A stretch of 64,000 nt of DNA from Dipteris shenzhenensis. Its lineage: Eukaryota. Shown here one piece after another: positions 4,291 through 25,563 of this stretch (the first letter of the stretch is position 1; every line of letters starts with the position of its first letter). The stretch is taken from assembly GCA_047967505.1 (NCBI GenBank), contig CM106538.1; one strand, given 5' to 3'. Both the position numbers and the translations under genes were made by a program. The notes under the pieces are model-generated. The model was given only the letters and a program-made list of their open reading frames with translations, was not told where the DNA came from and did not search any database.

Positions 4291-5285
4291 AAGGAAGAAT
4301 AGGAGCTGTACTCAAAGAGCTTTTCTTGCAAACTCCTTTTGAGTTGCTCCAGAGGGAGCTTTCTCTGTCCTTTCCTCTACAAGAGATTCTACCAATTTGC
4401 AAAATAGAGGATCCCTTCGTGCCTCTACTACTTCAGCAAGCAATTCTCTATAAAGCTCTCTTTGTTAGATTGCACGCCCTCTTCATGCCTGACTTGGGCA
4501 GTATCTGCAACTCCCTCATGGGATGTAACCGTCGTCAGGTTTAGCTTAACCATAGGTCTGCCACCTCAGCAGCTTGGCTGGCTGCCACATCAGCATCTCT
4601 GCACAGTTGCCACATCACAAACTGCTACATCAGCACTGATTGCATGCTATGCCATGTGTTAGTGTCACGTCATCGCCTAGTTGGCGGTTGCGACATCAAC
4701 ACCCAGGTGGCATAAGCTTTTTTTTTGTCGGCTCAACAACGGGGATTCATGCCCAATAACGGAGAATTGCTGTGGATTCTTTGCATTTGCAACTTTCTGA
4801 TCATTTGCAGCGTCTCAAGGCTTCAGTTATCATGTGATGCATTTACCCTTGCCCAGTAGATACTGGCGTAGTCTAGATAGTGTCAAGGCTATTAATTGCA
4901 TCGCCCACTTCCTTTGCCCAGCCTTCAACTAGCCTCTCTGATTTGACAAGGCGGACTCACTCACAACCTCCGTTTAGAACCAAAAAGAGAGGCGGCACAT
5001 CCACAATTGAAGCATGATACCCTTTGACTAACACCCGCTTTGCTTCACGCCCATGCAATTTCTGAGAGTGTGCGGTCCGCCTTTTTATGCAAAGGGGTAC
5101 TAAAATCCTACCTTGCGTTATCTCTGTCAGTACACGCGTTTACCTCACAGGCCACTGGTAACTGTGCGCTACAGATGTCCATTAGCATTCGCTTCACCTC
5201 CACAAGCTGGCAGAAGCACTTTGCCGAGCACCCATACAATTCTGGATTGTCTTTGTCATAGAAGACATAAGAATCTTGCGCACAC

Positions 5286-7284
5286 TTTTTTTTTTTTGGT
5301 GAAATCTTTTATTTCTGTGTGGGAAACCTCAAAAAGAGGTGAAAACCCACCAATAAGTACAAAGAGAAAATTTACAAGTAAATCCTTAGAGAGAAAATCT
5401 CATGAGGCAACCAAGTAAAAATTTACATATCAGTTGGAGGAGACTCCAACAAAACATCATCCATTTTCAAACTATTGCCTTGTAAAAATTGATGCGATGG
5501 AGTGACAACGCCATTAATAAAACATAGTTGTTTTTTGCCCTTGTGATTCTTCTTAAGATAAGCGGGTAGCCGAAACTTTTGAACCACAGGATCAAAAACC
5601 TACTGCAACTAGGGATGAAAAGACTCCAAGGAACAAGGAACATTAGGATCCGAGACTGAGAGGCTTTGTAATGGGGCCGGCATATCAACAAGCTTCTCAG
5701 GGGAAGGAACATGAAACTCCACAGAAAAGGAAATATTTGCATCCGGAATAACAGTATCTGGAGCTGAAGGACACTGTAGATTTTCTTCCACTTCATGCAT
5801 AACAGCAGAATTTTGCAGCAGTGAAGAAGAATGTGACAGAACAACTTCAGACGTCGAAGTAGCAGCAAAAACCGGATCACAAAGGACCTGACAATCTGAC
5901 ACTGTAGGTAGTGGATCCGGAACAGATAAAACAGCAAAAGGATTCGAATCTTGAACCAGCTTAGCCTCCTGAAATTTCCTCCAGACCTTAGCAGGTTTGA
6001 AAAAATGCCAGACTTCCTGTGTACTGGAAAAAGAAATAGGAACCGTAGGAACCGGTACAGGAGGAGGAGAACTCTTCAGAACAGGAGCTGGCGAAGAAGA
6101 AGAAGGGCATGCTCTGGCAAAATGACCAAGTTGGTGACATTTATAGCAAGCATTGGAAAAGGAGGCAAAACGAAGAGGAATCCGGAGAGGATGAGAAAAT
6201 CCAAAATCCAGTTCCAGATATGAAGGTATGAGCTGCTCCATATCCCAAAGAACACATATCCGAATATCTTTGCTTGTGACCAGAAAGTCTTGTTTAGGAA
6301 CGAAAAGGACACGGCCCAGCAGACCTGCAAGAGAAGGAACTTACTGAAGAAGTGGAACTGGCAAATCCTTGAGAGTAATCCAAACAGGACAGTTGAGAGA
6401 TTGCGTAGCTTGGAGCAAGATGATCAGGCTGAAGGAGTACGAAGAGAGACCACTGGAGAAGAGACATTTGACAATGGAGTAACAAGCGGAGGTTGTACTC
6501 TTCTCCATTCCTGTCTGAACTTAGATTTCTGTGAAGAAATAGCAAGGGGAGACAGAACCGCCTCCTTAGGAGCTGGTTGAACCATAGAAGAAGGGCAGCT
6601 GCGAGCAAAATGACCCAGTTGCTTACACTTGTAACATGCATTGGGGAATGAAGCAAACTGCAATTTTATGCACAACGGATGAGTAAAGTCAAAATCAATA
6701 TCCAAACAAGCAGGGATAGATTGGGCCATATCCCATAGCACACAGATTCGAATATCTCTGCTCTTGACTACGAAATCTTGCTTGGGAAAAGGCAACACTC
6801 TTCCGAGAAGGGGGGCAATAGAGGAAAGATGAGGAATAAGAGGAAACGACAAAGCTTTGAGGGTAATCCAAACAGGACAGTAATGCAAAAGATTCTGTGT
6901 ACGATTAAATAGGGGATCCCAAGGCATAACATAGGCAAAAAAACCAGCAACAGGAACCCGTGCCATGCTAACCAGCTGATTGAACCAATCAACGTATGAA
7001 CAGGGGCAGCCACAGGAACTGAAGCAGGTGGGATTGACGGTGAAATATGTACGCGAGCAGGAAAAGGAGGGTCTAGAACAACAGCGGCAGAAAGTGATGA
7101 AGTAGGAGGAGAAAACGTGGCTTCAGGCGAAACTGATGCAATAGGAAAAGAAAACGGGGCTTCATGTGGGGTATCACATATAGGGTCAAGCTGGTGGTCA
7201 GGAGCTTCAGAACGGGAAGCAGCAAGAAATGGCGTAGGGGAAAACAGAAGGGTTGCAGGAAGCAGCTCCTCCATGATGGCAAAA
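5286..7284 (-). mobile_element. ORF1-only LINE-like element, copy A (zinc-knuckle module duplicated)
   Basis: Poly(A) tail (T-run 5286-5297); plant L1 ORF1 motifs (YVMPWDP, CPVWITLK.L, CYKCxxxGHxxxxC, present twice); ATG at 7274; no EN/RT between the ORF end (5423) and the tail. Confidence 0.8.
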
Positions 7285-7285
7285 C

Positions 7286-7334
<49 letters not shown>

Positions 7335-7484
7335 CGGCGCAGGGGAAAACGGAAGGGTTGCAGGAAGCAACTCCTCCGTGATGGCAAACCCCCCCCTCCC
7401 CCACACACATACACCCACACACCCACACCCACACACACACGCGCACACACCCACACACCCACCCACACCCACACCCACGCCGCC

Positions 7485-7515
<31 letters not shown>

Positions 7516-7520
7516 ACATA
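7285..7520. repeat. Poly-C/(CA)n microsatellite tracts enclosing a duplicated ~55-bp 5' stub of element A
   Basis: C-runs and CA repeats; AGGGGAAAAC.GAAGGGTTGCAGGAAGCA.CTCCTCC.TGATGGCAAA occurs at ~7236 and ~7341. Confidence 0.9.
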
Positions 7521-9533
7521 TTTTTTTTAATATAGTGAAATCTTATATTTCTGTGTGGGAAACCTCAAAATAGGTGAAAACCCACCAATAAGTACAAGGA
7601 AAAAATTTACAAGTAAAGCCTCAAAGCGAAAGTCATGAGGCAGCCAAGTAAAAAGTTACATATCAAGCTGGAGGAGGATCAAACACAGCATCCTCCAGCT
7701 TCAAATTATTGCTTTGTAAAAACTGATGCAGTGATGAAACCACACCATCAATAAAAACAAGCTGTCCTTTACCCTTGTGATTCTTCTTGATATAGGCTGG
7801 TACCCGAAATTTTTGAATCACAGGTCAAAAACCTGTTGTAACATGGGATGAAAAGATTCTAGTAAAAAAGGTACTTCTGCATCCCGAACAGAAGAAGACT
7901 CTGGCACAGGCATCAAAGGCAAAGGGGCTAAATCAACCTTTGTATCCTCCAACGAAAGAGCTGCATCTGATAAAGTAGAACTCAGCATTTCAGCTTCACT
8001 TTGAGGACCAACTTGAGAAAGAGCAGGGGCAGCATCCTGTATAATCCCCTCTGCAAGGGGCACATCCATATCCTGAGAGGAAGGAGGCTGAAGATGCTCA
8101 ACAGGAGTCGCATCCTGAACTTCTTCAGCAAGAGAAAGAGTGGCCTGTGATTTTTCTACCTTCCTCCAGTAATGCTTCGGAGCAGTAAAAGAAGGCTTAT
8201 CCAACAAAACCTTAGCAGAAACCGGAGGAGAAGGAAGAGTAAACTTCACAGCTGAAGAAGGAGCAGGAGGAGTGGTCATGGAAGTAGAAGGGTAGGCACG
8301 TGCAAAATGACCAACCTGACAACACCGATAATAGGATGTAGGAAAAGAATCAAAATGTAGCCTGATGCGCATTGGATCAGCAAAGCCCAAATCAAGATCC
8401 AGAGTAGATGGCACAGGTTGCATCATATCCCATAAGATACAGAGTCAAACATCACGGGTAGCCTGCAAAAACTCCGGTCTCGAAACATGGAGAGGCCTCC
8501 CCAGAAGCGCTGCAAGAGTTGGCAGAGGCTGAAGAAGAGGCACAGGCAGCGCTTTGAGGGTAATCCAAACCGGACAATGGTTAGAAGAGAGGCAGACGGA
8601 TCAAATAGGGGATCCTAGGGCATCACATAAGCAAAAAAACCCGCTCCAGGAACACCAGCACGACTGACAAGGCGCTCAACCACATCAGTCGAAGAGCAGT
8701 GGGCATAGTAAATTCCTTTGCCTAGAAAGACAAAGGAAGAGATACAATCCGGATCCACTGCAACATCAGTTCAATGACGAAGATGAGCTGAAGATAAAAC
8801 CCTGCCCATAAAATAGAGGCAGACTCCCAATTGCTGAGCGTGACGAAGACCGGAGACCAAAAGGGCAGAATCCAAGGAGCGAACAAGCGGGGAATATGAT
8901 AAAGGAGCTTCTGTGACAGAGGAAGAGCACAATTGGGGAAGAAGATCCAGCTGGGAGAGAAGGACCATCAGAAATATCTAGCTTTGCCGATTTGACTGAA
9001 GGCGAGGCAAACACACCACCATGCTTCTGCCGAAGAAAAGCATGAGTAGTAGGAGTAGAGGCAGAAAGAGGAGAGGCTGAGGCAGAAAAAACAAAGGAAA
9101 CAGGTGTTGAAGCAGCAGGAAGGGAGGAGGAAGATGACACCGAGGGCTGCAACACCGGAACAGAAGGCAAAAGAGGCGCAGGGACAGATGGAGGCTGTAT
9201 AGCCTGTACGGACGGCTATACAATAGGGTTTGCAGAAAGAAAAGGCAGAGAGGAAAGCTGCTGCAGGCTAGAGGCTGTAGGACTTAGTCCCGAGGGCTGT
9301 ACGGAGGATGTAGGAGAGGCAGCAACCTGTACGGACTGCGTGAGAAGAGTAGATGAAGGGTGAGACTGAACACAATAGGGCTGGGACTGTACAAACGGGC
9401 GCGAGAAGGGAGCAAGAAGCTGTACGGACAATACGGATGGGGCTGGGAGGTGAATAGAGGATGACGGAATAGAAACAGAGGGGGACGAAGGGTCGACCAG
9501 GGCTAAGGGGGCTCCAGAGCTCTCCATTGCTCA
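7521..9533 (-). mobile_element. ORF1-only LINE-like element, copy B
   Basis: T-run 7521-7528; 3' end highly similar to copy A; QQLGVCLYFMGR, CPVWITLK and degenerate zinc knuckle; ATG at 9527; several frameshifts. Confidence 0.8.
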
Positions 9534-9558
9534 CCCACCCACCCACACACACTCTCTC

Positions 9559-10692
9559 TGTGACGCTCCAATTTTGTATATGAAATATTTTGGAATATAT
9601 ATCATAGATAGTGTTCAAAAAGGATGGTTTTGATGTTTTGAAGGTTTTTGGAAAGTTTGGTGTTGGTCCAAAAATTTTGGTTTTTGTCCATTATGGTGTC
9701 GGCTGGATTTTGCGGCTTGATTAGAGAGATAATTTGAAGAAATTTTGTATGAGAGAGTTCTAGATCTTGTTGAGTAGAAAAACTTTGTCCTAGTGAAAAA
9801 TTTGTGGTTCACTCGTTTGCATGCTTGTATGGAGGGCAGAAGTTGCTAACAAAGTGGTTTTGAGCTAAAAGAGCATCTAGATTTCTGTGTCAAGAGTTGC
9901 AGGCATTAGACGGAGGTCGAGATGGAAGAATTAGCCATGAAAGGTGAAATGCAAAGGGAAAGAAGAGGGTCCGATCTTCGAGATGAGCTATTGAGCTTGT
10001 CCATTGGATCTACGAGGCAGGCGTGGTGATGCTCCGAACAAGGCCATTTTCATGCCTTAAATTTTTTTTTTTTTTAAAAAGAGAGACGTCGAAATTCCGT
10101 ACGCGTTTGCTATCATAAGCGCATGCTAACAGAAGGTGAAAAGCACACGCATGCTTTTCGAGAAAAGCTGTTTTTTGGCCGATTTTGAAGGTTTTTGGCG
10201 GCTTATTTTGGAGTCGTGAAAGGCTATAAAAGAAGAGGAGATCGTGAGAAGGAGAACATACAATCCAACGCACGCATATCGAGGCTGTACGAAAGAGAAT
10301 AGAAGGCATGTATCTCGAGGTTGCTCGAGCGAAGAGAAGGCACACATATCGAGGTGCTGCGAAAGTGACAATAGCGCACGCAAATCGAGGCAGTGCAAAG
10401 AAGAAGATACGATCAAGATATTTTGAGAGTGAGAGTGAGAGTGAGAGTGTGATTGAGATTTGATCGTTTGATCATCTGATTTGAACATCTTCATGCGAGT
10501 GAGAGTGAGAGTGAGAGTGAGATAGCTCGGGGGTGGACGGGTGGTATCGAGCTCCTTCACGGAGTGATTCTTCTCCGAAATTATTGTAAAGGCTCATCAG
10601 TTTGATTCATACTGCAATCTCTCTTCTTTTTCATTGGTGATTATTATCTTGCTACAATTTTGATCGTGATTGTGAAAGAACGGTGCCTGACA
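9559..10692 (+). repeat. 5' LTR of the gypsy element
   Basis: Direct repeat of 15535-16666 with scattered substitutions and small indels; contains (GAGTGA)n tracts. Confidence 0.97.
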
Positions 10693-10694
10693 AG

Positions 10695-10706
10695 TGGTAT
10701 CAGAGC
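10695..10706 (+). promoter_or_regulatory. Primer binding site (tRNA-iMet)
   Basis: TGGTATCAGAGC 2 nt after the 5' LTR. Confidence 0.95.
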
Positions 10707-10715
10707 ACGGTTTCG

Positions 10716-13700
10716 ATGGCAGACAACGAGGCAATTATGAAGAAACTAGAAATACAAGATTCATTGATTTGAAGGCTAACCATGGAATTAAACAGATTGT
10801 CCAAAGGAAAAGACGTAGCGGATGATGGAGCTAGTAGTGGTGCTGCTGGCAGAAATTTAGAAGATGAAGAGGTCTATGTCGAGCTTGGTGCCGGGGTACC
10901 GAGCCGAAGGAGATAAAGAGGTGAGGAAGATGTTGCCGAAACTGCTCTTTTGCAAGTTTTTAAGAAAGCGAAACTCTCTGAATTTGATGGTGAGAAGAAG
11001 ACCGGGGAAGATTTGGAAGTGTGGCTTGAAGAACTTGAAGATTTCTTTGCCCTACGAGAGTTTGATGAAGCGGGAAAGGCTAAGATCGCGGCACTACAGT
11101 TACGTGGAGTTGCAAAACTATGGTGGAAGTCGCATGTGCAAATCCGACAACGTCAAGATCAACCCATCACATGGGCTGAATTCAGAACTGCAGCTGAAAA
11201 GAGGTATTGTTCTCCACATTATTATATGGAAAAGAAGATGGAGTTCTATAATTTTAAGCAAGTACAAGAGGGAAAACATAATCTATCTGTGGATGAGTAT
11301 AAAGAGAAGTTCCTGCGATTACATAAGTACGCACTGTGATGGGCTGAATTCAGAACTGCAGCTGAAAAGAGGTATTGTTCTCCACATTATTATATGGAAA
11401 AGAAGATGGAGTTCTATAATTTTAAGCAAGTACAAGAGGGAAAACATAATCTATCTGTGGATGAGTATAAAGAGAAGTTCCTGCGATTACATAAGTACGC
11501 ACCTGAGGTCACAGGTGAAGCTCTTACTCATAAATTTGTGGAAGGGCTTAAGGAAGATCTTTTATATATGATGAAAGGAACAGGATCAAGTGATTTCTTG
11601 GATGCTGTGGCTAAGGCCGAAAACTTTGAAAAGATGGAAGAATATAACCTAAGAAAGATAGCAAAATCAAGGTTCATTCCAACAGGTCATTGTCTTCAAG
11701 GGTCACAAGGTTCAGGTATGCCTCAACGAAAACCTGATTATTCAAATATGCCTAGATTTCAAGAGAGGAGTAGCCAACCTGGGTACAATCAAGTGGGAAG
11801 GCCAAATAACCGAAATCAGAATCAAAATCAAAATCAAAGAAATAAAGGAGTTTCAAATAAGAAAACCCAAGAAAACGCACCTTGGAAAAGTGATTCAGAG
11901 TTTATTGAACGGGCAAGAAGATTGGGATTATGTTTCCGATGTGGTGAGCAAGGTCACCGAACATTTGAGTGCCCGAATAAAGCAAAATTTAATTTTATGA
12001 AAGGACCAATGATGGGAGCAAAGACGAATTAGACGAATCCAACCATCGACGAAGCGGTGGACAAAGGTATGTGCTTGGAACCTTTGAAATGTATGGCATC
12101 TTCCACAACTCATATGCATGCGTCTGTGATTAAAGTGATGGGGAAAATTGGGAATCAAAACATAAGTTTTCTTATTGACTCTGATAGCACTCATTGTTTT
12201 ATATCCCCGAAATTCCTTAAGACTCTAAACGTAGAAATTAGGGATCAAGTCAGAAGACCAGTCCAACTTGCTAATTGAAAATTACATTATACTCAAGGGC
12301 TTCTAGAAAATCTTTCCTTCAGTTTAGCACAGAGGAAGAGTAAGGGAGATTTTTATGTTATTGAGATGGGGAAGTGTGACGCTATTATTGGAATGGATTG
12401 GTTAAATGTAAACAAAGCAGTTATTGATTGTGGAGAAAGGACCGTTAGTTTTCTTAATGAAGATGGCAAAGATAAAATTATTCAAGGAGAAGAAAGAGAT
12501 AGTAAAGCTTCTCTCATATCAGCCATGAAATTGCTGCGAGGAGTAAGACAGGGCTGTGACACATTTCTCGTCTTTGTTGATAAGTTAAAGGAGGGAAGTG
12601 AAGATGAGACAGTACCACACTATGTTACAAAACTCCTTGAAGAATTTTCCGATGTGTTTCTTGATGATTTACGTGGGATGCCACCGCCTAGACATCTTGA
12701 CCATGCTATAGAGTTAGAACCAGGCACAAGTCCTTATTGTCGGGCTCCCTATAGATTTAATGTGGATGAACTAAAGGAGTTAAAGCTTCAACTGGATGAC
12801 TTGTTAAAGAAAGGGTTTATAAAGGCTAGCGTTTCTCCTTGGGGTGCTCCAGTCTTATTTCAAAAGAAAAAGGATGGAACTTATAGGCTTTGCATTGACT
12901 ATAGAGGATTGAATCGGCATACTATAAATAATAAATACCCTCTACCTCACATTGATGAATTGTTGACTCAATTGAATGGTGCCACAGTGTTCTCTAAAAT
13001 TGATTTGCGATCTGGTTACCATCAGATTCGTATTGAGGAGGAGGAGGACATTCCTAAAACTGCTTTTAGAACTCGCTATGGCCATTATGAATTTACTGTG
13101 CTTGCTTTTGGCTTGACCAATGCACCCGCTACCTTCATGTGTCTAATGAATGATGTATTCCGTGAGTATTTAGATAACTTCATTCTGGTTTTCTTGGACG
13201 ACATTTTTGTACATTCCAAGAATGGGGAACAACATGAACAACATCTAAGGAAAACACTTGAAAAGTTACGGGAGCATAAACTTTATGGGAAAAAGAGCAA
13301 ATGTTTCTTCGCTAAAGACAAGCTTGTGTATTTGGGTCGTGTGATTTCAAAAGATGGTATTCATATTGATCCTGACAAAGCAAGGCTTATTTCGGAGTGG
13401 CCTAGACCGAAAAATGTAAGGGAGGTAAGAGGCTTTATTGGCTTAGCACAATATGAGAGAAAACATATCAAAGATTTCTCAAAAATAGCCTCTCCACTTA
13501 CTGATTTGACAAAACTTGACAAGCAGTTTATATGGACGGAGAAGTGTCAACAAGCTTTTGATACTATAAAAGACAAAGTGGCTGAAAATTATATTCTCAA
13601 GATACCCGAGATGGGTAAACCTTTTGTAATGACATGTGATGCTAGTGGTACCCGACTTGGATGTGTACTTTCTCAAGATGGTCGTGTAGTGGAATATGAG

Positions 13701-15507
13701 TCTCGAAAATTAAGGAAGCATGAAGAGAACTATCCCACGCATGATCTCAAATTGGCTGCCGTTGTTCATGCATTGAAACATTGGAGACACTTTCTACTTG
13801 GTGTAAAGTTCGAACTTCGAACAGATCATGAAAGTTTGAAGTACCTCTTCACTCAACCATTATTGAATAATAGGCAAAGAGGATGGATGAATCTTCTTTC
13901 CGAGTATGACTTTGAGATTAAGTACATTGAGGGAAAGGAGAATAGGGTGGTTGATGCTTTAAGTAGAAGACCTTTCGTGAATGCCATCACCCTTATTCGT
14001 TCCGATCTTGCAGAAAACATTAGAAATGAACTTGAACATGATGTTTTTTATGCACCTATTCTTCAAAAGATTGCTCAAACACCTTGTGAAAAGATTGAAG
14101 GAAAATTTCATTTGGTGAATGGTAATTTATATTGCCATGATAGACTTTGTGTACCATGTGATTCACCTTTGAGATGGAAAATCTTGTATGATTGTCATGA
14201 TGCTCCATTTTCGGGACATGTTGGATATAACAAAACATACAGCAAGGTTCGAAAATCATTTTATTGGCTTGCACTAAAGCGTGATGTTCGTCGTTATGTC
14301 CAAGAATGCTTACAATGTCAACAAGTGAAGGTGGAATAACATAAGATGCCTGGTAAGATGCAACCTTTGGATATACCTTTCAGGAAGTGGGAATCAATAT
14401 CCATGGGTTTTATTACTAAACTACCTATAGCTCGAGGGGGATATGATACCATTTTTATCGTCGTTGATCGTTTTACCAAAATGGCACATTTCTTTCCTAT
14501 GAAAAAGACTGATGGTGCTCTTGAGGTAGCTAAGTTGTTTGTGAAAGAAATTTTCCGATTGCATGGGATGCCTAAAAGTATTGTGTCAGATAGGGATTCC
14601 AAATTTACTTCTCATTTTTGGAAGGCCACATTCAAAGCAATTGGGACGGAGCTTAAGATGAGTACAGCTTTCCACTCACAAACAGATGGAGAAACTGAAA
14701 GGGTTAATCACGTACTTGAGGATATGCTTCGAATGTATGTTAATGAGAAGGAAACAAATTGGACAGAATTCCTATCCTTAGCCGAGTTTGCTTATAATAG
14801 TTCCTGGCATAGCTCCATTCAAATGTCTCCATTTGAAGCCATGTATGGTCAGAATTGCCACACTCAATAGTTCCTGGCATAGCTCCATTCAAATGTCTCC
14901 ATTTGAAACCATGTATGGTCAGAATTGCCACACTCCTGTGAATTTTTCGGATCCTCAAAATAGAGTCGAAGTGTCTAGACAAATGCTTGAGAGAATGGAT
15001 GAGGAAGTGAAACTGATTCGGAAGAGCATTCAAAGAGCACAAGACAGGCAAAAGCAATACTATGATAAGAAGCGGTCTTTCCGTGAATTTCAGATTGGGG
15101 AGATGATATTTCTGAAAGTAATACCTAAACGCAGTAATCTAATCCTTCGGAAGGATAGAAGGCTCGCACCTGGTTTCGCAGGATCTTTTAAAATCTTAAA
15201 GAGGGTGGGAACGCTTGCATATCAACTTGAACTGCCTGAGAACATAAAAGTGCATCCTGTTTTCCATGTCTGTCTATTGAAATCTTATGTTGCCAACCCA
15301 ACTCATATTTTGCAGGACAAGTCTAGGATCATGGAGGATGGGACTTTGAAAGTCGAACCTGAATATATATTGGATAGGAACACGAAGCGGCTTAGGAATA
15401 GAACAATAGAAGAAGTTTTGGTTAAGTGGGATGCTTATCCTGTAGAAGATGCTTCATGGGTAGACTTAGATGCCTTACTTACTGAGTTTCCTTCATTTAA
15501 ACTCTGA
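10716..15507 (+). pseudogene. gag-pol polyprotein with chromodomain integrase, disrupted
   Basis: One frame from ATG 10716: gag zinc knuckle CFRCGEQGHRTFEC, protease LIDSDSTHCFI, RT VFLDDI, RNase H CDASG, integrase SDRDSKF, chromodomain VLVKWDAYPVEDASW. Interrupted by in-frame stops and two tandem duplications. Confidence 0.95.
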
Positions 15508-15534
15508 GGACAGAGTTCCTGAAGAGGGAACGGA

Positions 15535-16464
15535 TGTGACGCTCCAATTTTGTATATGAAATATTTTGAAATATATATCATAGATAGTGTTCAAAAAGGA
15601 TGGTTTTGATGTTTTGAAGGTTTTGAGAAAGTTTGGTGTTGGTCGAAAAATTTTGGTTTTTGTCCACTATGGTGTCGGCTGGATTTTGCGGCTTGATTTT
15701 GAGTTGGTTAGAGAAATAATTTGAAGAAACTTTGTATGAGAGAGTTCTAGATCTTGTTGGGTAGAAAAACTTTGTCCTAGTGAAAAATTTGTGGTTCACT
15801 CGTTTGCATGCTTGTATGGAGGGCAGAAGTTGCTAACAAAGTGGTTTTGAGCTAAAAGAGCATCTAGATTTCCGTGTCAGGAGTTGCAGGCATTAGACGG
15901 AGGTCGAGATGGAAGAATTAGCCATGAAAGGTTAGATGCAAAGGGAAAGAAGAGGGCCCGATCTTCGAGATGAGCTATTGAGCTTGTCCATTGGATCTAC
16001 GAGGCAGGCGTGGTGATGCTCCGAACAGGGCTGTTTTCATGCCTTTAAAAAAAAAAAAAAAGAGACGTTGAAATTCCGTACGCGTTTGCTATTATAAGCG
16101 CACGCTAAAAGCAGGTGAAAAGCACACGCACGTTTTTCGAGAAAAGCTGATTTTGGAGGTTTTTGGCGGCTTATTTTGGAGGCGTGAAAGGCTATAAAAG
16201 AAGAGGAGATCGTGAGAAGTAGAACACACAATCCAACGCACGCATATCGAGGCTGTACGAAAGAGAAGAGAAGGCACGCATCTTGAGGTTGCTCGAGCGA
16301 AAACAAGGCACGCATATCGAGGTGCTGCGAAAGTGACAATAGCGCATGCAAATCGAGGCAGCGCAAAGAAGAAGATACGATCAAGATATTTTGAGAGTGA
16401 GAGTGAGAGTGAGAGTGTGATTGAGATTTGATCGTTTGATCATCTGATTTGAACATCTTCATGC

Positions 16465-16496
<32 letters not shown>

Positions 16497-16666
16497 TAGC
16501 TCGGGGGTGGACGGGTGGTATCGAGCTCCTTCACGGAGTGATTCTTCTCCGAAATTATTGTAAAGACTCATCAGTTTGATTCATACTGCAATCTCTCTTC
16601 TTTGTCATTCGTGATTATTATCTTGCTACAATTTTGATCGTGATTGTGAAAGAACGGTGCCTGACA
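15535..16666 (+). repeat. 3' LTR of the gypsy element, preceded by PPT GAAGAGGGAACGGA (15521-15534)
   Basis: Direct repeat of 9559-10692. Confidence 0.97.
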
Positions 16667-16693
16667 CTCTCTCTCTCTCTCACAGACATGCAC

Positions 16694-18620
16694 TTTTTTT
16701 AGTGAAACCATATATTTCTGTGTGGGAAACCCCAGAAGAGGTAAAAACCCACCATATAGTACAAAAGTAAAAAGTTTTACAAGTAGGCCCCTTGAAAAAG
16801 CCAGGTAGCTAACCGGAAACTAGAAAAGTGAAAATAATCACAAATCACCAGGGGAGGCATCTAGTAGGATATCCACCACTGTGAGATTATTTGCTTGCAA
16901 AAACTGTTGTAGAGGAACCAGGCAGCTAACTGGAAACTAGAAAAGTGGAAATAATCACAAATCACCAGGGGATGCATCTAGTAGGATATCTACCACTGTG
17001 AGATTATTTGCTTGCAAAAACTGTTGTAAAGGAACCACATCTCCATCAATAAAATGAAGGTATTTTTTACCTTTGTGATTCTTCTTGAGATCTCGAAATT
17101 TTTGAATCACAGGGTTAAAAACCTGCCGCAACCAGGGATGGAAAGAGTCCAAAGAAAAAGTAGAGGCAGGCACCAGATCCGTCATGGATGAGGAAAAGTA
17201 GTATCCAGTCCAAGAGAAGTATCCATATTAACAACCACAGTCTGAGTAGCTTGCTCTTGCAAATCCACAGTTGGTTCCACAAGGGCATCATGAGCTCGAT
17301 CTGAAGAAGAAAGATCCACATGTTTATGTTGCTCTGGCAAATCTGTATTCTCATCACCTGCATTATGTCCATCTGAAGGAGATATATCGACATGTAACTC
17401 AAAAGATTGTAATTCAGAGACCGGAGAAGGTGGGCGAGACTCCACTCCTTCAAAATGAGACTGCTGAATTGAAACTATCTCTGGAGGGTCAGCAACATGA
17501 AAGGGAGGATATACTGATAGAGAAGCTTTCTCTTGAGGATGGACCCGTTGCCATTCCTTTTTGTGTTTATGCTGGTCTAACTTAACTAAATGGAGAGGAG
17601 GAGAAACTTGAGGGAAAGGCAAACTGTTGTGAGATTGAGGTAAGAGCAAGGGGCAGCACCGAGCTGCCTACATTTATAACACGCATTTGGGAAAGAAGCA
17701 AACTTCAGAGGAATGCGGAAAGGATGCACCATACCAAAATCAATATCCAAGCAGGAAGGTATAGGTTGCTCCATATCCAAAGTATGCAAACACGGATATC
17801 TCTCTTCAGAACTAGGAAATCTTGCTTCGGGAGATGCAGAATCTTCCCCAACAACGCTGCGATAGAGGAAATATGTGGGAGAAGAGGTATCGGCAATGCT
17901 TTGAAAGTAACCCAGACTGGGCAGTAATGCATGAGGTTCTTTGCCGGGTCAAAAAGAGAGTCCCATGGCATAACATAAGCAAAAAAGCCTGCACCATGGA
18001 CCCTTGCCTGATTTACCAAACTATACACTGTCTCCACATCAACACAGCGAGCAAAGTAGAAACCTTTGCCCAAAAAAACAAAAGAAATAATTCGATTAGG
18101 ACCAACTGCTGCAGAAGACCACGCACGCAACTGAGAAGGAAAGAGGATACGTCCCATGAAGTAGATGCAAATTCCGAATTGCTGCACTTCAGAGAGACTC
18201 TCAATAAGCGAATCTGGAGATTGAGCCCGATTTAGTAACAGACCTGAATTGACCATCTCTGAAACTGAGTCTTCACACAGCCGTCGAAGCAGGTCCCGTT
18301 GCAAGGAAGTAGAAGAACTGTGGCTGTTATGAAGCTTAGGCTGAGAAGATACAGAGAAAGAAACGTGTTTCTTTCTTGCGACAGAAGCAGGATTTGACCG
18401 AAAAAGAAACGGAGCGGCGACGGCTGGCGATGGGTTTACGGGACCAAATGGAGCTTGCGAAGTAGAAGCAGAAAGCTGCCAAGGAACATCTGAAGGTTGC
18501 GAAGTAGAAGTAGAAAGCTGCAAAGGAACGGAGGTGGGCTGGCGTGAGGCAAAGGAAGACGAAAAGGACATAGGCAACGAACGGGAGGAAACATCGAGTT
18601 CCATCTTTCCCTTTCTACCT
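16694..18620 (-). mobile_element. ORF1-only LINE-like element, copy C
   Basis: T-run 16694-16700. ORF 17705-18628 has a DUF4283-like region (FLGKGFYFARC, YVMPWD, CPVWVTFKALP), followed by CYKC and the shared C-terminal domain (16955-17185). ATG at 18604. Confidence 0.82.
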
Positions 18621-18875
18621 GCACACACACTTTTTTTTTTGTGAGAAGAAATATTTTATTGCTGTAAAAGAATTACATTCATAGTTATTGCAAAAGCGAA
18701 GTAACTACTACTCCACTGAAAATCTCAGTATAAGCTATATATACATCATGATCAATCAAATGAGTCTGAAAGCAATCATAAAATGATTGCCGCAGAGATT
18801 GTCTGAAAAAAACAAAAGATGGAGAAGTAGGATCACCAAAGACTCTATGATTTTGTCCATCCATAGAGTCCACAG

Positions 18876-21825
18876 TGTTGGTAAACTGAAAGGAAAGCAT
18901 GGAGTGAACACAAACTAAGAATTCTTGCTTATGGAATGAAGAAAGGTGAGGTCCTTAAGTAGGCACCTCTTACATGATCACTGACATCATTGATGACCTC
19001 TGAGCTCCACAATCATCTCCTCAATCTGCTCCTAGATTCTCTCAATCATCCTATGTGGCTTCTACCACCACCTAATAGTGCTGATGGGCACCTAATTGTG
19101 CCTCTAGCACACACACATAGAAACCAAGGTGTGCCTGGGGCATACACCTTGAGATATCCCAACATACCTCCCCTCAAGGGAATGCCTCAGGCTATGTCAA
19201 GGATACAGTTAGCACAAGGTGTCACATGCCATCTCATGGTGGTCATGGATCTATCAATGGCTAGGATCTCAAGCTAGCAAGGGTTCCCATGGGTGTAAGG
19301 TAAACAAAAGGGATACAAAAGACCTTCCAATGGTTATCTCCCCTTCGTGTACATGCACACAATGTCTGCAGGAGGTACAATGGAGCAAAAACACTTACAC
19401 ATGGCCTACATCATATGGTGACCAGAGGTGTTTACAAAACACACAATAGTTTATTTCATTCATTTTGGGAGGACTATCCAGGCTGAGTACCTTGACTCAA
19501 CAAAAAAGAGAGATCTGGAGCATACATGGAGATGATTCAAAAAGCATAATCTTCATAGGATGCCTCATCTTGTGGAGGCACATCAACTGAAAGTAGATTG
19601 GCATTTTCTGACTTTGAAGTTGCTTCCTTTTTGGCTGTACAAAACTTTTCATGATGATTGTTCTTGCCAACAGTGTTTGCATGGATTGATCTTGAAGCAG
19701 TCTTTTGAGAGGTGATTAGTCTTCCCACAATGATTGCAAGGTGAAAACTTGCCCTTTTGGATTTTTATGGCATAGGCTGTGTCATTTCCTTTCCGGAGTT
19801 CCATGTGCCTTTCTTCTTCTTGAAGAGCAGAGATAAGACCTTCAAGATTAGGATTAGGAAGATTTTTCAAAGTGGTAACAACATGATCATAATCTTCAGG
19901 CATACTCTTGAGCAACACTGCCATAGCATCATCTGTAGTGTTAGGAGAGTTGATAGAAGCAAGTTGAGGCATGAGACTCCACATGTAATTGACATGGGCA
20001 GCCAAAGGAGTGCCACTAACCATCTTCAATTCAAAGAAAGCAATCTTAAGTGACAATTTTGAGATGTGAGAGCTAGCACCAAAAATAATATCAAGCTTCT
20101 GCCAAGCTTTTGAAGAAGACTCTAAGTCAGAGATGTGATGAATATAGTCATCTCCTAAGGCAAGAGCAATGATGCCATAGGCTTTCTCCTCTCTAGCAGG
20201 ATCTCTTGCCAGGTGTGTCGGAGTTGAGGATTCTCCAGCATTGGAGGCTGTTGAAGAAGAAGTTGAAGCCGGTTTCACAAGCCCCCAGAGGTTTTCCCTC
20301 ATTAATGCAAACTTGACCTTCATGTGCCATGTGTGGAAACCCTTACCATTGAACTTATCGATATTCAAGATGGTAGCCATGAGGGTCTAACCCAGAATGG
20401 GCAGTGTCTACCTCTTACAAGGCAAGAAAGAGTTGAAGAGCTTCAAAAAACAAGCATTTAGAGTAGCAAAGGCTTGCAACCAAAATCCATACTACAAACC
20501 AATGATGTTTTCACTTGCATGCTTCATAGAGGTGACTAAATGAAAGTATTCCAAGCAAATCCAGGTATAGCAACTTAAAAGAAAGTTGTAGCCACAGTTG
20601 TACTGATGCTTTTCAAAATTTTAAAACCTTAGAAATGCTAAAGTAGCATCTAATGTAGCATCACACTCACAACCTTGCCAAAACTGTCCAAAACAAAGGC
20701 CTGAACTTGGAGGGCTTGTATCTCACTCTTCAAAGCAAAGAAAAGAGGGCTTTCTGAAGCAAAAGAAAGCTCATATACCAGAGAAGATTCAGCACAGAGG
20801 TTGGGCGAAATGGCGTGCTGTTTTGCCCGGGGGAGTTGCTGCAGGCTGAACCTGAGTTTTGACGATTTCTCATTTGTTATTGAACCAAATGAGCTGAAAA
20901 ATGACTCAAAATGTTCGTCTTGAGGTCGCCCATCTACTCCTAAGAGGGCTCAAGCAATGGTGCAGCAGGCAGGGAGTATTTTGCAATAGAAGAATGAGGA
21001 AAAAATGCGCTGTTTGGAGAATGGCAGCCAGCAGAGACGTTTTTTTTTCAATTTCTTGCAGGTGGAGGTTCGCCCAAACGAGGGGTATCTCCAGCAGGAA
21101 GGGCTTGGAGAATGGCGGAGAATTGAGGGAGAACAAGCTTTAGCAAGATTTGGGAAGAAAGAGAAGAAATGGTGAAGATGAAGAAGAAGAAGATGGAGAA
21201 GAAGATGATGTGGCACAAGTGGGCTCAAGGAGGATCAAAGTGCTCTGATACCATGTTGGTAAACTGAAAGGAAAGCATGGAGTGAACACAAACTGAGAAT
21301 TCTTGCTTATGGAATGAAGAAAGGTGAGGTCCTTAAGTAGGCACCTCTTACATGATCACTGACATCACTGATGACCTCTGAGCTCCACAATCATCTCCTC
21401 AATCTGCTCCTAGATTCTCTCAATCATCCTATGTGGCTTCTACCACCACCTAACAGTGCTTATGGGCACCTAACTGTGCCTCTAGCACACACACATAGAA
21501 ACCAAGGTGTGCCTGGGGCATACACCTTGAGATATCCCAACATATATCTCAAGGTGTATGCCCCAGGCACACCTTGGTTTCTATGTGTGTGTGCTAGAGG
21601 CACAGTTAGGTGCCCATAAGCACTGTTAGGTGGTGGTAGAAGCCACATAGGATGATTGAGAGAATCTAGGAGCAGATTGAGGAGATGATTGTGGAGCTCA
21701 GAGGTCATCAGTGATGTCAGTGATCATGTAAGAGGTGCCTACTTAAGGACCTCACCTTTCTTCATTCCATAAGCAAGAATTCTCAGTTTGTGTTCACTCC
21801 ATGCTTTCCTTTCAGTTTACCAACA
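18876..21825 (-). mobile_element. Non-autonomous gag-only Ty1/copia element carrying an extra inverted LTR
   Basis: 3' LTR 18876-19164, 5' LTR 21254-21542, PBS (GCTCTGATACCA 21242-21253), PPT adjacent to 19165, inverted LTR 21544-21825; TSD CACAG at 18871-18875 and 21826-21830. Confidence 0.93.
19537..20380 (-). pseudogene. Copia gag with two zinc knuckles (frameshift in the second)
   Basis: IDKFNGKGFHTWHMKV, AYGIIALAL, LLKSMPEDYDHVVTTL, CNHCGKTNHLSKDC; no pol downstream. Confidence 0.88.
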
Positions 21826-23906
21826 CACAGTGCCCAGTAGCGCACCCAAACAAAAAATAAATCAAAATCCTGTAGAGCTGGATGAAAACCAAATAACCAG
21901 AAGAACTTGCTAAAAGTAACAGTAGGAAATCTCGCTCGAAGTCCCTGTCGAATGAGAGCGAGGAAATCACAAGTGTGTGGACAGTGCCAAAAGATGTGAA
22001 GCACAGAGATTCACCAGGATGTAGACATTTGTGGCAAACAGTCGAAGCAATATTTCTATGCGCGAGTAATTGCCCAAATGGAAAAATGCCAAGTAGGACT
22101 CGCCAAAGGAAAAGCTGTTGCCGAAGAGGGACTTTATAATGCCAAAGGAGATGCAGCCGCTTTCTCCACCACTTTAGTAGGCAATCCATATGCCAAACAG
22201 AATTTGCTCTGTCAGAAATCCAAGGCGGAAGCAACAACACTTTATACATAGAAGGCACTGTGATATGTGAGAGCTTCAAAGGACGGGCTGAAGAGGAAGA
22301 AGAATGTAGAGTCCAATCCTCAAGCCTATCTTGACGTTCCAAACGAGGTACCGGCAAGAAAGGTTGAAGCATTTCGAAAATTTTATGCCATAAAGGACGA
22401 TAATGAGCTCCCAAACCATATTTGCTAGCAGCAGTAGAAAAAGATAAAAGAGTGCCATCATCCTGAAGTACATCCGCCATAGAAGAAATGCCTTTGAAAG
22501 ATATAAAATAAGAACGCCTGGGTTCTTGTATAGCCAAAGGAGGGTGGAATACTTTGGACCAATAAATACTCTCAGCCCTCAAGGAATTTCCCGACAAAGA
22601 ATCCCTGCCATGCCATTCTAAGTGGGATAAAATATGCTTCCAATCAAGAAGCAAACGAGAGACAAAAGGGTAGTCTCTGATCTTGCCTTGAATAGAGCCA
22701 AATAGAAAATCCCACTGTGTAGGCTGCCAATGTCCAAAAGTAGAAGTATCAATATGCAACAAAAGAGAGCGGATCATGAAAGCCCAAGGCTGATCCCCTT
22801 GCATAAACTGCAACATCATTTTAACCCTGTGAGCAAGTATATACATTTGAATATTGAGTATGTTCAGACCCCTGTGCATCTTTGGAGAGCATAGAATATG
22901 CACAGAGAGTAATCTGAGACTTTTCTTGCCATTTTTTGAACACCAGAAAATCTCCATGATAGCAGACATAAAGGAAACCAGATCTGCCTTAGTGAACATG
23001 ATGAGAGGCAGAGAGAATTCTATGTAAGCTATTAAAATGGATTGCGTTATTCGCAATCGAACATGTAATGGCCAAGTTGTAAGCTTCCAAGGCCACAAAA
23101 GACTTTGTCAGTCTTTAGCATGCAACGGCAGTAGCTTTGATTTCTGAAAATTGACATGAAGACCAGCAGCCAAACCATAGGTAGAAAGAGCCTGCATAAT
23201 CATGGAGAGATCGCTTTGAGTATTTTTTGGGGTAAAGAAAGAATCATCAGCATATGCTTGAGCGATCATGCTATGGCTGCCAGGAATTTCCAATCCGTGC
23301 AAAGGTGGTCCATATATTGAAGCATTGGATGAGTGGCTATGGCAAATAGTAAAGCACTGAGGGGACATCCTTGCCGAACAGAACAACCAAGAGTCCAGGT
23401 TGTAGAAATATCCCCTGAAAGTATGCAGGCAGCTTTAGTATCTTGATATAGCCAATTGATAACTTGCTGCATATTTATGCCAAATCCCAAGGCCTGCATA
23501 GTTAATGAAATAAAGTCCCACTTAACAGTATCAAAAGCTTTGGCAATATCAACTTGCAATAGCAAAACATCCTGCTGCTGCATATATTTGGCATATTCAA
23601 TTCCAACATAAGCATTAGCAATGTTATCTGTGATATGCGTACGAGGAACAAAACCATATTGCGCAGGATGCAACCCATCATGTAAATAGCCTTTTAGCCG
23701 ATTAACAATCATTTTGGTAGTAAATTTGTAAATGACTGGCATAAGCGTGATAGGTCTCCAATCAGTCAAAGGTTCACAAATTTGCTTTTTTGGAAGGAGT
23801 TTAACAAGACCTCTCTTCCATGTGTCTGGCATTTTTTGTTTTAACCCTCTTGGCATAAGCCAAGCCTTGTTGACCAAAGTGACCACGCTCTGGCCGAAGT
23901 TAGCTC

Positions 23907-25563
23907 TGTAATGCTCTTGGCCTAAGCCGAGTCTCCCTAACCGGAGTTAGGCTTATTTAACCGGAGTTAAGTATCTTTGACCGTAGTCAATACTTTGACC
24001 AATAAAAGATAACTTTTTTGAATATAATTAAATAAATGAAGAACTCTCTAATTATGATCAAATAAATGGAATTTGAACTTTGACTTGGAATATTTACAAC
24101 TTGGTCACATGTTGCCTTTTTTTTGTTGCTCCACGTGCATGTGTAAGGTCCTCATCGACATAAATAAGCTTGCCTTCAAGGTGGCCCTCTTTGTCAAGAC
24201 AACATGTCTTGTTCCTTGCATCATAGCTTCCATCCTCTTCATGTGCTCAGACATTTTTATTTTTATTTTTTCCGAAAAAACAGTGCTGATTATATTACTT
24301 CGAAAACAAGGTACATGAGGTCAGTTTTGCAGCTGACGGGGCTGCGTTCACAAATCGGACGCAGCCCTAAAAGGAAACAGAAAGCTCTCTCTCATGGAGG
24401 GATCAGGCGAGTGTGAATGAACAGCCAGAGAGGTGGTGAATAGCGCCACTGAAGGCCCTGAGAAGTATGCTCGAAGAAGAGGCCCTGCGTATCCCAATCA
24501 CGGAGGAAATGTCTCCGCTTCTCCCGGCCAGCCCGGGAATCTCCCTATATCTGGTCCCACTGGCCTCTGAGTGTGTGTATAATCTCACTCTAGATGTCGG
24601 TCATGACCTGGGCAGTCGAAAGAGAGGTGCCACCGAGGATCTGCGCGTAGCGCGAGGTCCAAATGTGCCATCCAGCGATGCTGCTAATAATCTCCCAGAC
24701 TGGCTGCCTCTCCTGAGATCCTGTGTCAGCCTCTGCCAGGTGCGGCGGAATGCCCTCTAGCGGCCCCTGCTCAGACATTTTTATGTATGTGTGTGTCTAT
24801 GATTATATTGTATTTGTCTTTAGTGTTGTTGCTCAATTGATGCTCCACCCATTCAGCTCATTGTATCTGGTTCTTTCAGTCCCATAGACCCTTTGGTCTT
24901 TCAAAGACTTTTAATAATCTTTCTTTCTTGTTCTTTCTTTCTTTCTACTTGACTATATCAGGGGTTTCTCCCTTGAGTCATCTTTCCCCGATCTCTAGGC
25001 ATTTCAACCTGTTTGCTCTACTTGAAGCTTCCCATGCATGAACTAATAGTAAGCTGGTGATATCATCCTTGATCCTCACCACTTTGAGGTTATGAGCCTT
25101 ATTTGATCTGTGGATCTCCTTTTGAAAGTTGTTTTAGATTGCCATGGAACTCCTTGTAGGACTACGTAGGTGCTGCCATAGGCTGTAGAAGTAGGTCATG
25201 TGGGTCGTTTGTTGCAGAGCCAAGAAAGACCAGGATATTGTGCAGGTAAATAGCCTATTATAGGCTAGAGAAGCTGACTAGTTGGCAGTGCCATTTGGCA
25301 GTCCTATACAGGGTCAGGTACAGGTGGACCCATTACACTCTAGATCAGGTCAGCCCAACCCTAAGCAGGTTGGGCTGATAGACTGGCCAGTTGGCCAGGG
25401 CCCAATAGAGGAGGGGTACTTCCCCTGTACAAGGCCTCATTATGGAGGCTATCATGAGTTCAGTTCAGAAGTATCACTGTGGAGCAACACTTGATACATA
25501 CATACAGCCAGTAGGAGAGCACATGTGTGCAGGGGGGGTGGCGTCTAAGAAACTCGCACTACA
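23907..25563 (+). repeat. Probable orphan LTR containing a LINE insertion
   Basis: Termini TGTAATGC...GCACTACA; followed after 2 nt by TGGTGATTAAAGC, which resembles a decayed iMet PBS. No second copy. Confidence 0.4.
24261..24767 (-). mobile_element. 5'-truncated L1-type LINE 3' end with 17-bp TSD
   Basis: TGCTCAGACATTTTTAT at 24244-24260 and 24768-24784; T-rich tail at the left end; translation contains WHIWTSR and the C-terminal QWRYSPPLWLF. Confidence 0.8.

Follow-up and report, generated by a model that had tools for sequence, protein, structure and literature searches.

Introduction

In plants, the dominant architecture of the ORF1 protein (ORF1p) of L1 elements combines DUF4283 with a CCHC knuckle, DUF4283 being described as a domain of unknown function, and the available excerpts of the paper reporting this (Ivancevic et al., 2016, PMC5203782) make no mention of a conserved C-terminal block in plant L1 ORF1p. 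Gain and loss of modules is a known feature of ORF1 proteins (Schneider et al., 2013, PMC3905857; Metcalfe and Casane, 2014, PMC4120745), and those of the LINE-1 type carry a small extra domain, the CTD, C-terminal to an RRM-like domain. Derivatives in which ORF1 multiplies without ORF2 have also been described. HAL1 ('half-L1') of mammals is a non-autonomous L1 derivative that encodes ORF1p alone (Kojima, 2018, PMC5753468), and the EKA gene family of powdery mildew, to which effector function is attributed, is derived from LINE ORF1 (PMC4641428).

The locus analyzed here lies within a 64-kb stretch of DNA, referred to as the window, and resembles each of these systems in part. Like plant L1 ORF1p, it shows DUF4283 followed by a CCHC knuckle, with an encoded poly(A) and in a plant-type genome, whereas it has no ORF2 and possesses, past a long variable linker, a block of 64-70 residues which is in no Pfam model. 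Like HAL1, it is a LINE derivative that kept ORF1 only and whose ORF1 was under selection between lineages (dN/dS 0.09-0.27). The ORF1p of HAL1 is of the mammalian coiled-coil/RRM/CTD type, whereas the ORF1 described here, from a plant-type host, is of the DUF4283 plus knuckle type with an extra C-terminal block. Although the LINE-1 CTD is also a small C-terminal module, no match to it was found in sequence or, with models of low to middling confidence, in fold, and the present module is located past the knuckle and a linker of 136-156 residues and not right after the RRM. As in the case of EKA, ORF1-derived sequences multiplied without ORF2; however, EKA is fungal and has effector function, whereas all copies of the present element are broken and nothing suggests domestication.

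No description of plant ORF1-only LINE families or of a conserved ORF1 C-terminal domain was found in Creative-Commons PMC papers and bioRxiv. ORF1-only LINE derivatives themselves are known, and the novel aspect is the undescribed C-terminal module on a DUF4283/knuckle ORF1p. We consider it somewhat better than an even chance (roughly 55%) that the block forms a genuine C-terminal module of ORF1p in an ORF1-only family of HAL1-like non-LTR elements from a plant-type genome.

The block is carried by decayed ORF1-only elements

The window consists of transposon-rich plant-type DNA, in which a chromodomain Ty3/gypsy element occurs beside copia fragments, DUF4283 ORFs and a fragment of a LINE ORF2. 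Three poly(A)-tailed non-LTR elements of ~2 kb, all of them decayed, are arranged head to tail on its minus strand, and each is composed of a short GT-rich leader, a single ORF (ORF1), a 3' UTR and a short encoded poly(A). ORF1, with an original length of roughly 550 codons, encodes in this order an S/P-rich N-terminus, DUF4283, the CCHC knuckle, a variable S/P/acidic linker and the block of 64-70 residues. Element C (16694..18630, minus strand) has its ATG at 18602-18604 and continues with a knuckle at about 17660-17720, a linker at 17185-17649, at least three frame breaks upstream of the block, a 3' UTR at 16701-16954 and an A7 tail at 16694-16700. Element B (7521..9558, minus strand) has its ATG at 9525-9527, followed by DUF4283 remnants, a degenerate knuckle, linker and block with several frame breaks, a 3' UTR at 7529-7655 and an A8 tail at 7521-7528. 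Element A (5286..6420, minus strand) is 5'-truncated inside DUF4283 and retains the CCHC knuckle, linker and block, a 3' UTR at 5298-5422 and an A12 tail at 5286-5297. The 5' end of A is abutted by a partial copy P (6427..7122, minus strand), which comprises DUF4283, zf-CCHC and the start of the linker and has no block.

A Pfam search detected DUF4283 (PF14111) in copy C (E 6.1e-9; 36.1 bits, the cut-off being 27.2) and, below the cut-off, in partial copy P (E 0.004), and zf-CCHC (PF00098) was found above the cut-off in copy A (E 1.9e-5) and in P (E 3.9e-7). The knuckle of copy C keeps CYKCRQLG and loses the frame thereafter, and the cysteines of copy B are degenerate. In all three copies with a 3' end, the stop codon is followed only by ~115-250 nt of UTR and an A7-A12 run, with no ORF2, and for this reason the elements are ORF1-only, as the original prediction had held. 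The translation of the ORF at 16955..17185 and the lesions of copies A and B also proved to be as it had described them. Its placement of the block at the C-terminus of ORF1-only proteins was likewise borne out, with the correction that the ORF1 which the block terminates in copy C is broken: ORF1 of this copy is distributed over at least four reading-frame pieces (18604-17705, 17789-17586, 17649-17182 and 17185-16955), and the ATG at 17185 is therefore fortuitous. The 76-aa ORF at 16955..17185 was ruled out as a free-standing small gene, as homology continues upstream of it in another frame; since every copy is broken, this ORF is a surviving piece of ORF1 and no gene.

The four copies (A, B, C and P) lie within 13 kb in one orientation with 50-66% protein identity, much like an old gene cluster, and they might thus be viewed as DUF4283-family host genes that were duplicated in tandem and have since died, the block then being a domain of a host protein. 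Such an origin is highly improbable: the three copies that reach the 3' end all have their A7-A12 run ~20 nt past an AATAAA-like signal whose position in the UTR is the same, copy A has lost its 5' part and adjoins P within the linker of P, and the 5' leader of C is immediately preceded by another poly(A) tail (18631-18640). In addition, protein searches found no annotated plant protein with the block.

P and A were also considered as a single, internally duplicated element, and this was rejected: their duplicated parts differ with pN 0.22 against pS 0.79, which indicates divergence under selection in separate lineages. At the junction (6420-6440, minus strand), truncated A is joined to the linker of P, no 3' remainder of P is present past the tail of A, and P and A together amount to ~2.0 kb, that is, one full element length. 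The junction may represent a template-switch chimera rather than a nested insertion.

The four poly(A) tails (5281-5297, 7500-7528, 16667-16700 and 18621-18640, minus strand) all run straight into GTG or TG-rich simple sequence, the respective sequences being GTGTGCGC; TATGTGTGTG...G-run; GTGCATGTCTGTGAGAGAG; and GTGTGTGTGC. These flanks suggest that the elements inserted at (TG)n or poly(A) sites, or else that a GT-rich 5' leader is part of the element. Between the tail of B and copy P, the stretch 7130-7520 contains a G-run, is (GT)n-rich, includes two direct repeats of ~100 nt (TTTGCCATCA.GGAGGAG...) and has locally very high AT and GC skew.

Copies C and B are separated solely by a Ty3/gypsy chromovirus on the plus strand (9559-16666) with gag, protease, RT, RNase H, integrase and chromodomain, which inserted into a GA/GT-rich spacer of ~60 nt between the tail of C and the start of B. 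The two LTRs (9559-10692 and 15535-16666) share 92.8% identity over 1151 nt, and the chromovirus is flanked by a 5-bp target duplication, CTCTC.

Three copies converge on one C-terminal block

When the block was compared with the 64-kb window by tblastn, three places were detected, all on the minus strand (16958-17185, 5426-5632 and 7666-7875), and none beyond those of copies C, A and B. The block of copy C (16958..17158, minus strand) has 67 codons, from FSLDSFHP... to ...SPGDL, with an intact frame, a stop codon TGA at 16955-16957 and an in-frame 9-nt deletion relative to A and B. The block of copy A (5426..5632, minus strand) contains two in-frame TAG codons and ends at a TAA at 5423-5425, and that of copy B (7656..7868, minus strand) carries a 1-nt deletion and a 1-nt insertion leading to an early TGA at 7663-7665, its ancestral TAA being located at 7656-7658. 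Identities in the tblastn comparison were 59% for C-A (E 7e-22), 51% for C-B (E 1e-14) and 64% for A-B (E 3e-22).

The linkers of 136-156 residues upstream of the block are rich in S+P+T (25-35%) and in D+E (10-17%) and, aligned globally, are 22-25% identical with shuffle z values of -0.5 to 4.8. With 51-64% identity in the block against 22-25% in the linkers, the three copies indeed converge on one block after a non-conserved linker, as first noticed from the letters. Alignability at the DNA level begins about eight codons ahead of the motif SFHP and persists through the stop codon. Copy C additionally displays a tandem duplication of 117 nt (16801..17034, minus strand; the units are 95% identical) that extends from the last 26 block codons across the stop codon into the first part of the UTR; as the functional stop is in the upstream unit, the end of the protein of copy C is unchanged.

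The block evolved under protein-level constraint

Codon-level constraint was evaluated in a codon alignment framed on copy A by the Nei-Gojobori method, the three copies providing few informative sites. For C-A (61 codons), differences by codon position were 15/10/27 with a dN/dS of 0.159 (Fisher p 4e-7); the corresponding values were 17/11/25 and 0.244 (p 6e-5) for C-B (62 codons) and 14/5/19 and 0.272 (p 7e-4) for A-B (64 codons). Third positions therefore hold most of the differences in the block (27 of 52, 25 of 53 and 19 of 38, respectively), and constraint at the codon level, whose absence the original prediction had named as a refutation, is evident in every pair. The frame-breaking lesions are each confined to one copy. 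Apart from such private indels of broken copies there is a single one, the 9 nt in C, and its length is a multiple of three.

A 40-codon segment covering the knuckle gave dN/dS values of 0.09-0.25 where synonymous sites were unsaturated (three or four copies). As the dN/dS of the block is similar to that of the knuckle, the constraint on the block equals that on a part of ORF1 whose function is recognised. These results show that the block evolved under protein-level purifying selection, that the element lineages diverged while this selection was as strong on the block as on the knuckle, and that after insertion each copy decayed separately.

The synonymous difference per site in the block ranged from 0.40 to 0.63, the latter value being that of C-A. 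For A-B it falls from 0.77 in the knuckle to 0.40 in the block and to about 0.1 in the UTR, and with this drop towards the 3' end, part of the conservation may stem from some constraint on the nucleotides or from a shared 3' module of younger age.

A conserved 3' UTR adjoins the block

The terminal ~85 nt of the 3' UTR (C, 16701-16785; A, 5291-5380; B, 7533-7615; all minus strand) are 82-87% identical and contain a predicted hairpin, although the synonymous sites of these copies differ by 40-79%. By blastn, UTR identities were 87% for A-B (140 nt), 82% for A-C (93 nt) and 84% for B-C (86 nt), and the UTR after the stop codon differs by 13-18% according to blastn or by 10-11% according to global alignment. 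The predicted hairpin has 12 pairs in two stacked stems, GGTGGG...CCCAC enclosing ACCTC...GAGGT, and is located just before the AATAAA-like signal. Each pair is either retained or altered in just one of its two bases, save one pair that is broken in copy B, and no covariation was found among the three sequences. The tail of the element upstream of C has only 40 nt in common with the tail of copy A (82.5%). Because the UTR is far more conserved than the synonymous sites of the block, with a step at the stop codon, a protein module here adjoins a nucleotide module.

A UTR whose last 86-140 nt are more similar than any coding part, a predicted hairpin and an A-B synonymous difference that falls towards the 3' end could also mean that what is conserved is mainly a cis-acting 3'-terminal RNA or DNA element for reverse transcription, with the reading frame being incidental. 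For the coding block, this explanation is already largely refuted and overall very improbable. Third codon positions take most of the differences, as reflected in the dN/dS of 0.16-0.27 and in Fisher p values down to 4e-7, the synonymous difference between C and A steps sharply at the stop from 0.63 in the block to 0.11-0.18 in the adjoining UTR, and relatives with 35-47% protein identity retain the frame and the position of the stop.

Relatives outside the window and a LINE ORF2 fragment within it

A HMMER profile made from the three copies was searched against 1.84 billion representative proteins with no length limit. At E<=0.001 it gave 10 matches, nine of which align over the block (E 5e-12 to 4.7e-4) and are 35-43% identical to copy C. 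The tenth, P0007, was dropped, as it is an internally repeated protein of 318 aa that matches profile positions 16-45 only. One more relative, P0017 (E 3e-17), was obtained in a near-length word-index search with a 12-row profile. The ten relatives are ORF fragments of 56-158 aa from Logan or ENA assemblies and belong to clusters of 1-3 members; an intact full-length ORF1 with the block was seen neither among them nor in the window, where all copies are broken.

In the trimmed alignment of 12 rows, which is gap-free except for the deletion of copy C and one single-residue gap, the Q of IQKF never varies and I, K, F, K, F and D hardly do. Conservation in the block is highest at the IQKF motif, at a basic loop with the consensus KKxHKGxKK and at an F-x-D-G turn. 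Seven of the 10 relatives stop 0-6 residues from the end point of the window copies; among the others, one extends 16 residues further, one is cut within the block and one diverges halfway. All four relatives that have at least 25 residues upstream of the block are S/T/P/D/E-rich in that part, like the linkers of the window, and DUF4283 upstream of the block is within reach of none of the relatives' fragments. Two scans of metagenome contigs yielded 589 and 326 pattern matches, none of which was confirmed as the block.

Of the proteins that the exhaustive HMMER search aligned over the block, none exceeds 158 aa, and two word-index searches among longer proteins (134-2000 aa and 278-2000 aa), which count as weak evidence, found none either. 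This absence argues against the block being a tail that belongs to ORF2 or to some annotated host protein.

A degraded L1-type ORF2 fragment is present upstream of C on the minus strand (21815-23946), with matches to RVT_1 (23269-23946, E 6.6e-22) and zf-RVT (21815-23107, E 8.8e-5). It contains the only LINE-type RT ORFs in the window and belongs to another element; neither an endonuclease domain nor an ORF1 is recognisable upstream of it, and tblastn detected no block in it. The zf-RVT end of the fragment is interrupted by one of two copies (21254-21826 and about 18875-19447; 96-98% identical) of a near-perfect palindrome of ~570 nt, a MITE-like hairpin, and a copia fragment starts at 25608.

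Non-autonomous derivatives usually originate by internal deletion. An autonomous LINE that lost its middle in this way would have preserved its 3' end, and the block, which forms one contiguous conserved 3' module with the UTR, might then be a leftover fused in frame, whether the very C-terminal end of ORF2 or an exon captured from the host. This appears improbable in view of the searches among longer proteins just described, of the lack of block sequence in the ORF2 fragment of the window, and of the relatives, which upstream of the block have linker-like sequence and no RT or zf-RVT.

The same ORF2 fragment bears on another possibility, the second of the two roles suggested in the original prediction, namely that the block would dock onto the ORF2 protein of an autonomous partner LINE and would thereby restore the cis-preference that is missing in an element without its own reverse transcriptase. 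The elements, which have no ORF2, still kept ORF1 under selection, the block is carried on a long flexible tether, as may be frequent in docking modules, and a LINE ORF2 fragment lies 3 kb upstream on the same strand. However, no intact partner LINE is present within the 64-kb window, and the conserved 3' UTR alone can explain recognition in trans. As judged from these sequence features, docking is unlikely, if still worth considering.

Searches matched the block to no described family or fold

Searches with the block of the three copies and 12 family members retrieved nothing at gathering score from Pfam; sub-threshold matches, among them NCH2 (E 0.013) and FdhE_N (E 0.038), each occurred in one member. 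Transposase_22 (PF02994), which represents the CTD of LINE-1 ORF1p, gave no match at E<=1 in any of 12 block sequences. A profile search of PDB sequences reached a best E of 0.69, with a flavoprotein, and the ESM Atlas a best score of 0.83, with URO-D fragments and within the chance range, a second query there having no usable match. The block thus belongs to no named family, and none had been recognised in it at the outset.

Two AlphaFold2 models were obtained. Model 1 (copy C first, 12 rows) has a mean pLDDT of 57.5 and is composed of helix, hairpin and helix, and model 2 (P0001 first, 14 rows) has a mean pLDDT of 69.4, with 73-86 over the block, and shows mostly short strands and one helix. 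The two models conflict in the first half, where model 1 has a helix and model 2 has strands. Fold searches retrieved no neighbour, neither with model 1 against 48,161 chains (best Z 2.9) nor with model 2 (best Z 2.7), and no neighbour was found with Foldseek against the PDB (best E 0.86). The Transposase_22 fold was not among the matches listed in the fold searches, in which the queries were models of low to middling confidence. Profile searches and Foldseek on predicted structures, checks of the kind suggested at the outset, gave no match to a described family. We infer that the block may be a small alpha/beta unit on a flexible tether. The proposal of a folded domain under selection holds as regards selection (dN/dS 0.16-0.27, Fisher p 4e-7 to 7e-4), and the two disagreeing models, with pLDDT 57.5 and 69.4, do not establish a stable fold. 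A self-association prediction for two copies of residues 34-100 of P0001 resulted in a score of 0.00, which speaks neither for nor against it.

Discussion

The reading that we prefer, a genuine C-terminal module on the ORF1p of a HAL1-like family, is compatible with the following mode of propagation. The ORF1p of an element would package the element's own RNA, and the ORF2 protein of a partner LINE would supply reverse transcription, as with HAL1, for which Bao and Jurka (2010) are cited. The block would contact nucleic acid or the RNP and so aid the coating of the RNA by ORF1p in cis, and the adjacent conserved hairpin of the 3' UTR would be recognised in trans by the reverse transcriptase of the partner LINE. 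Since the IQKF motif, the basic loop and the F-x-D-G turn are conserved, a nucleic-acid or RNP contact fits best among the possible functions. That the block provides such an extra contact, helping ORF1p to coat its own RNA in cis, is put forward tentatively, at somewhat less than even odds, whereas a role in self-association is rather unlikely.

A more far-reaching version, which is doubtful at present, would make these elements of a plant lineage the first HAL1-like family outside mammals, with a newly acquired folded domain of ORF1p that, together with the hairpin of the 3' UTR, enables the element to capture in trans the reverse transcriptase made by an autonomous LINE. If true, this would be a protein-based answer to the cis-preference problem, which SINEs solve by RNA alone.

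With a small evidence base and a function deduced from sequence features, the finding is a modest one and of interest to transposon specialists. The ORF1 proteins of plant LINEs have barely been characterised, and a selected protein module located beside a nucleotide-conserved UTR offers a handle on the reverse transcription of non-autonomous elements that make their own RNA-binding protein.
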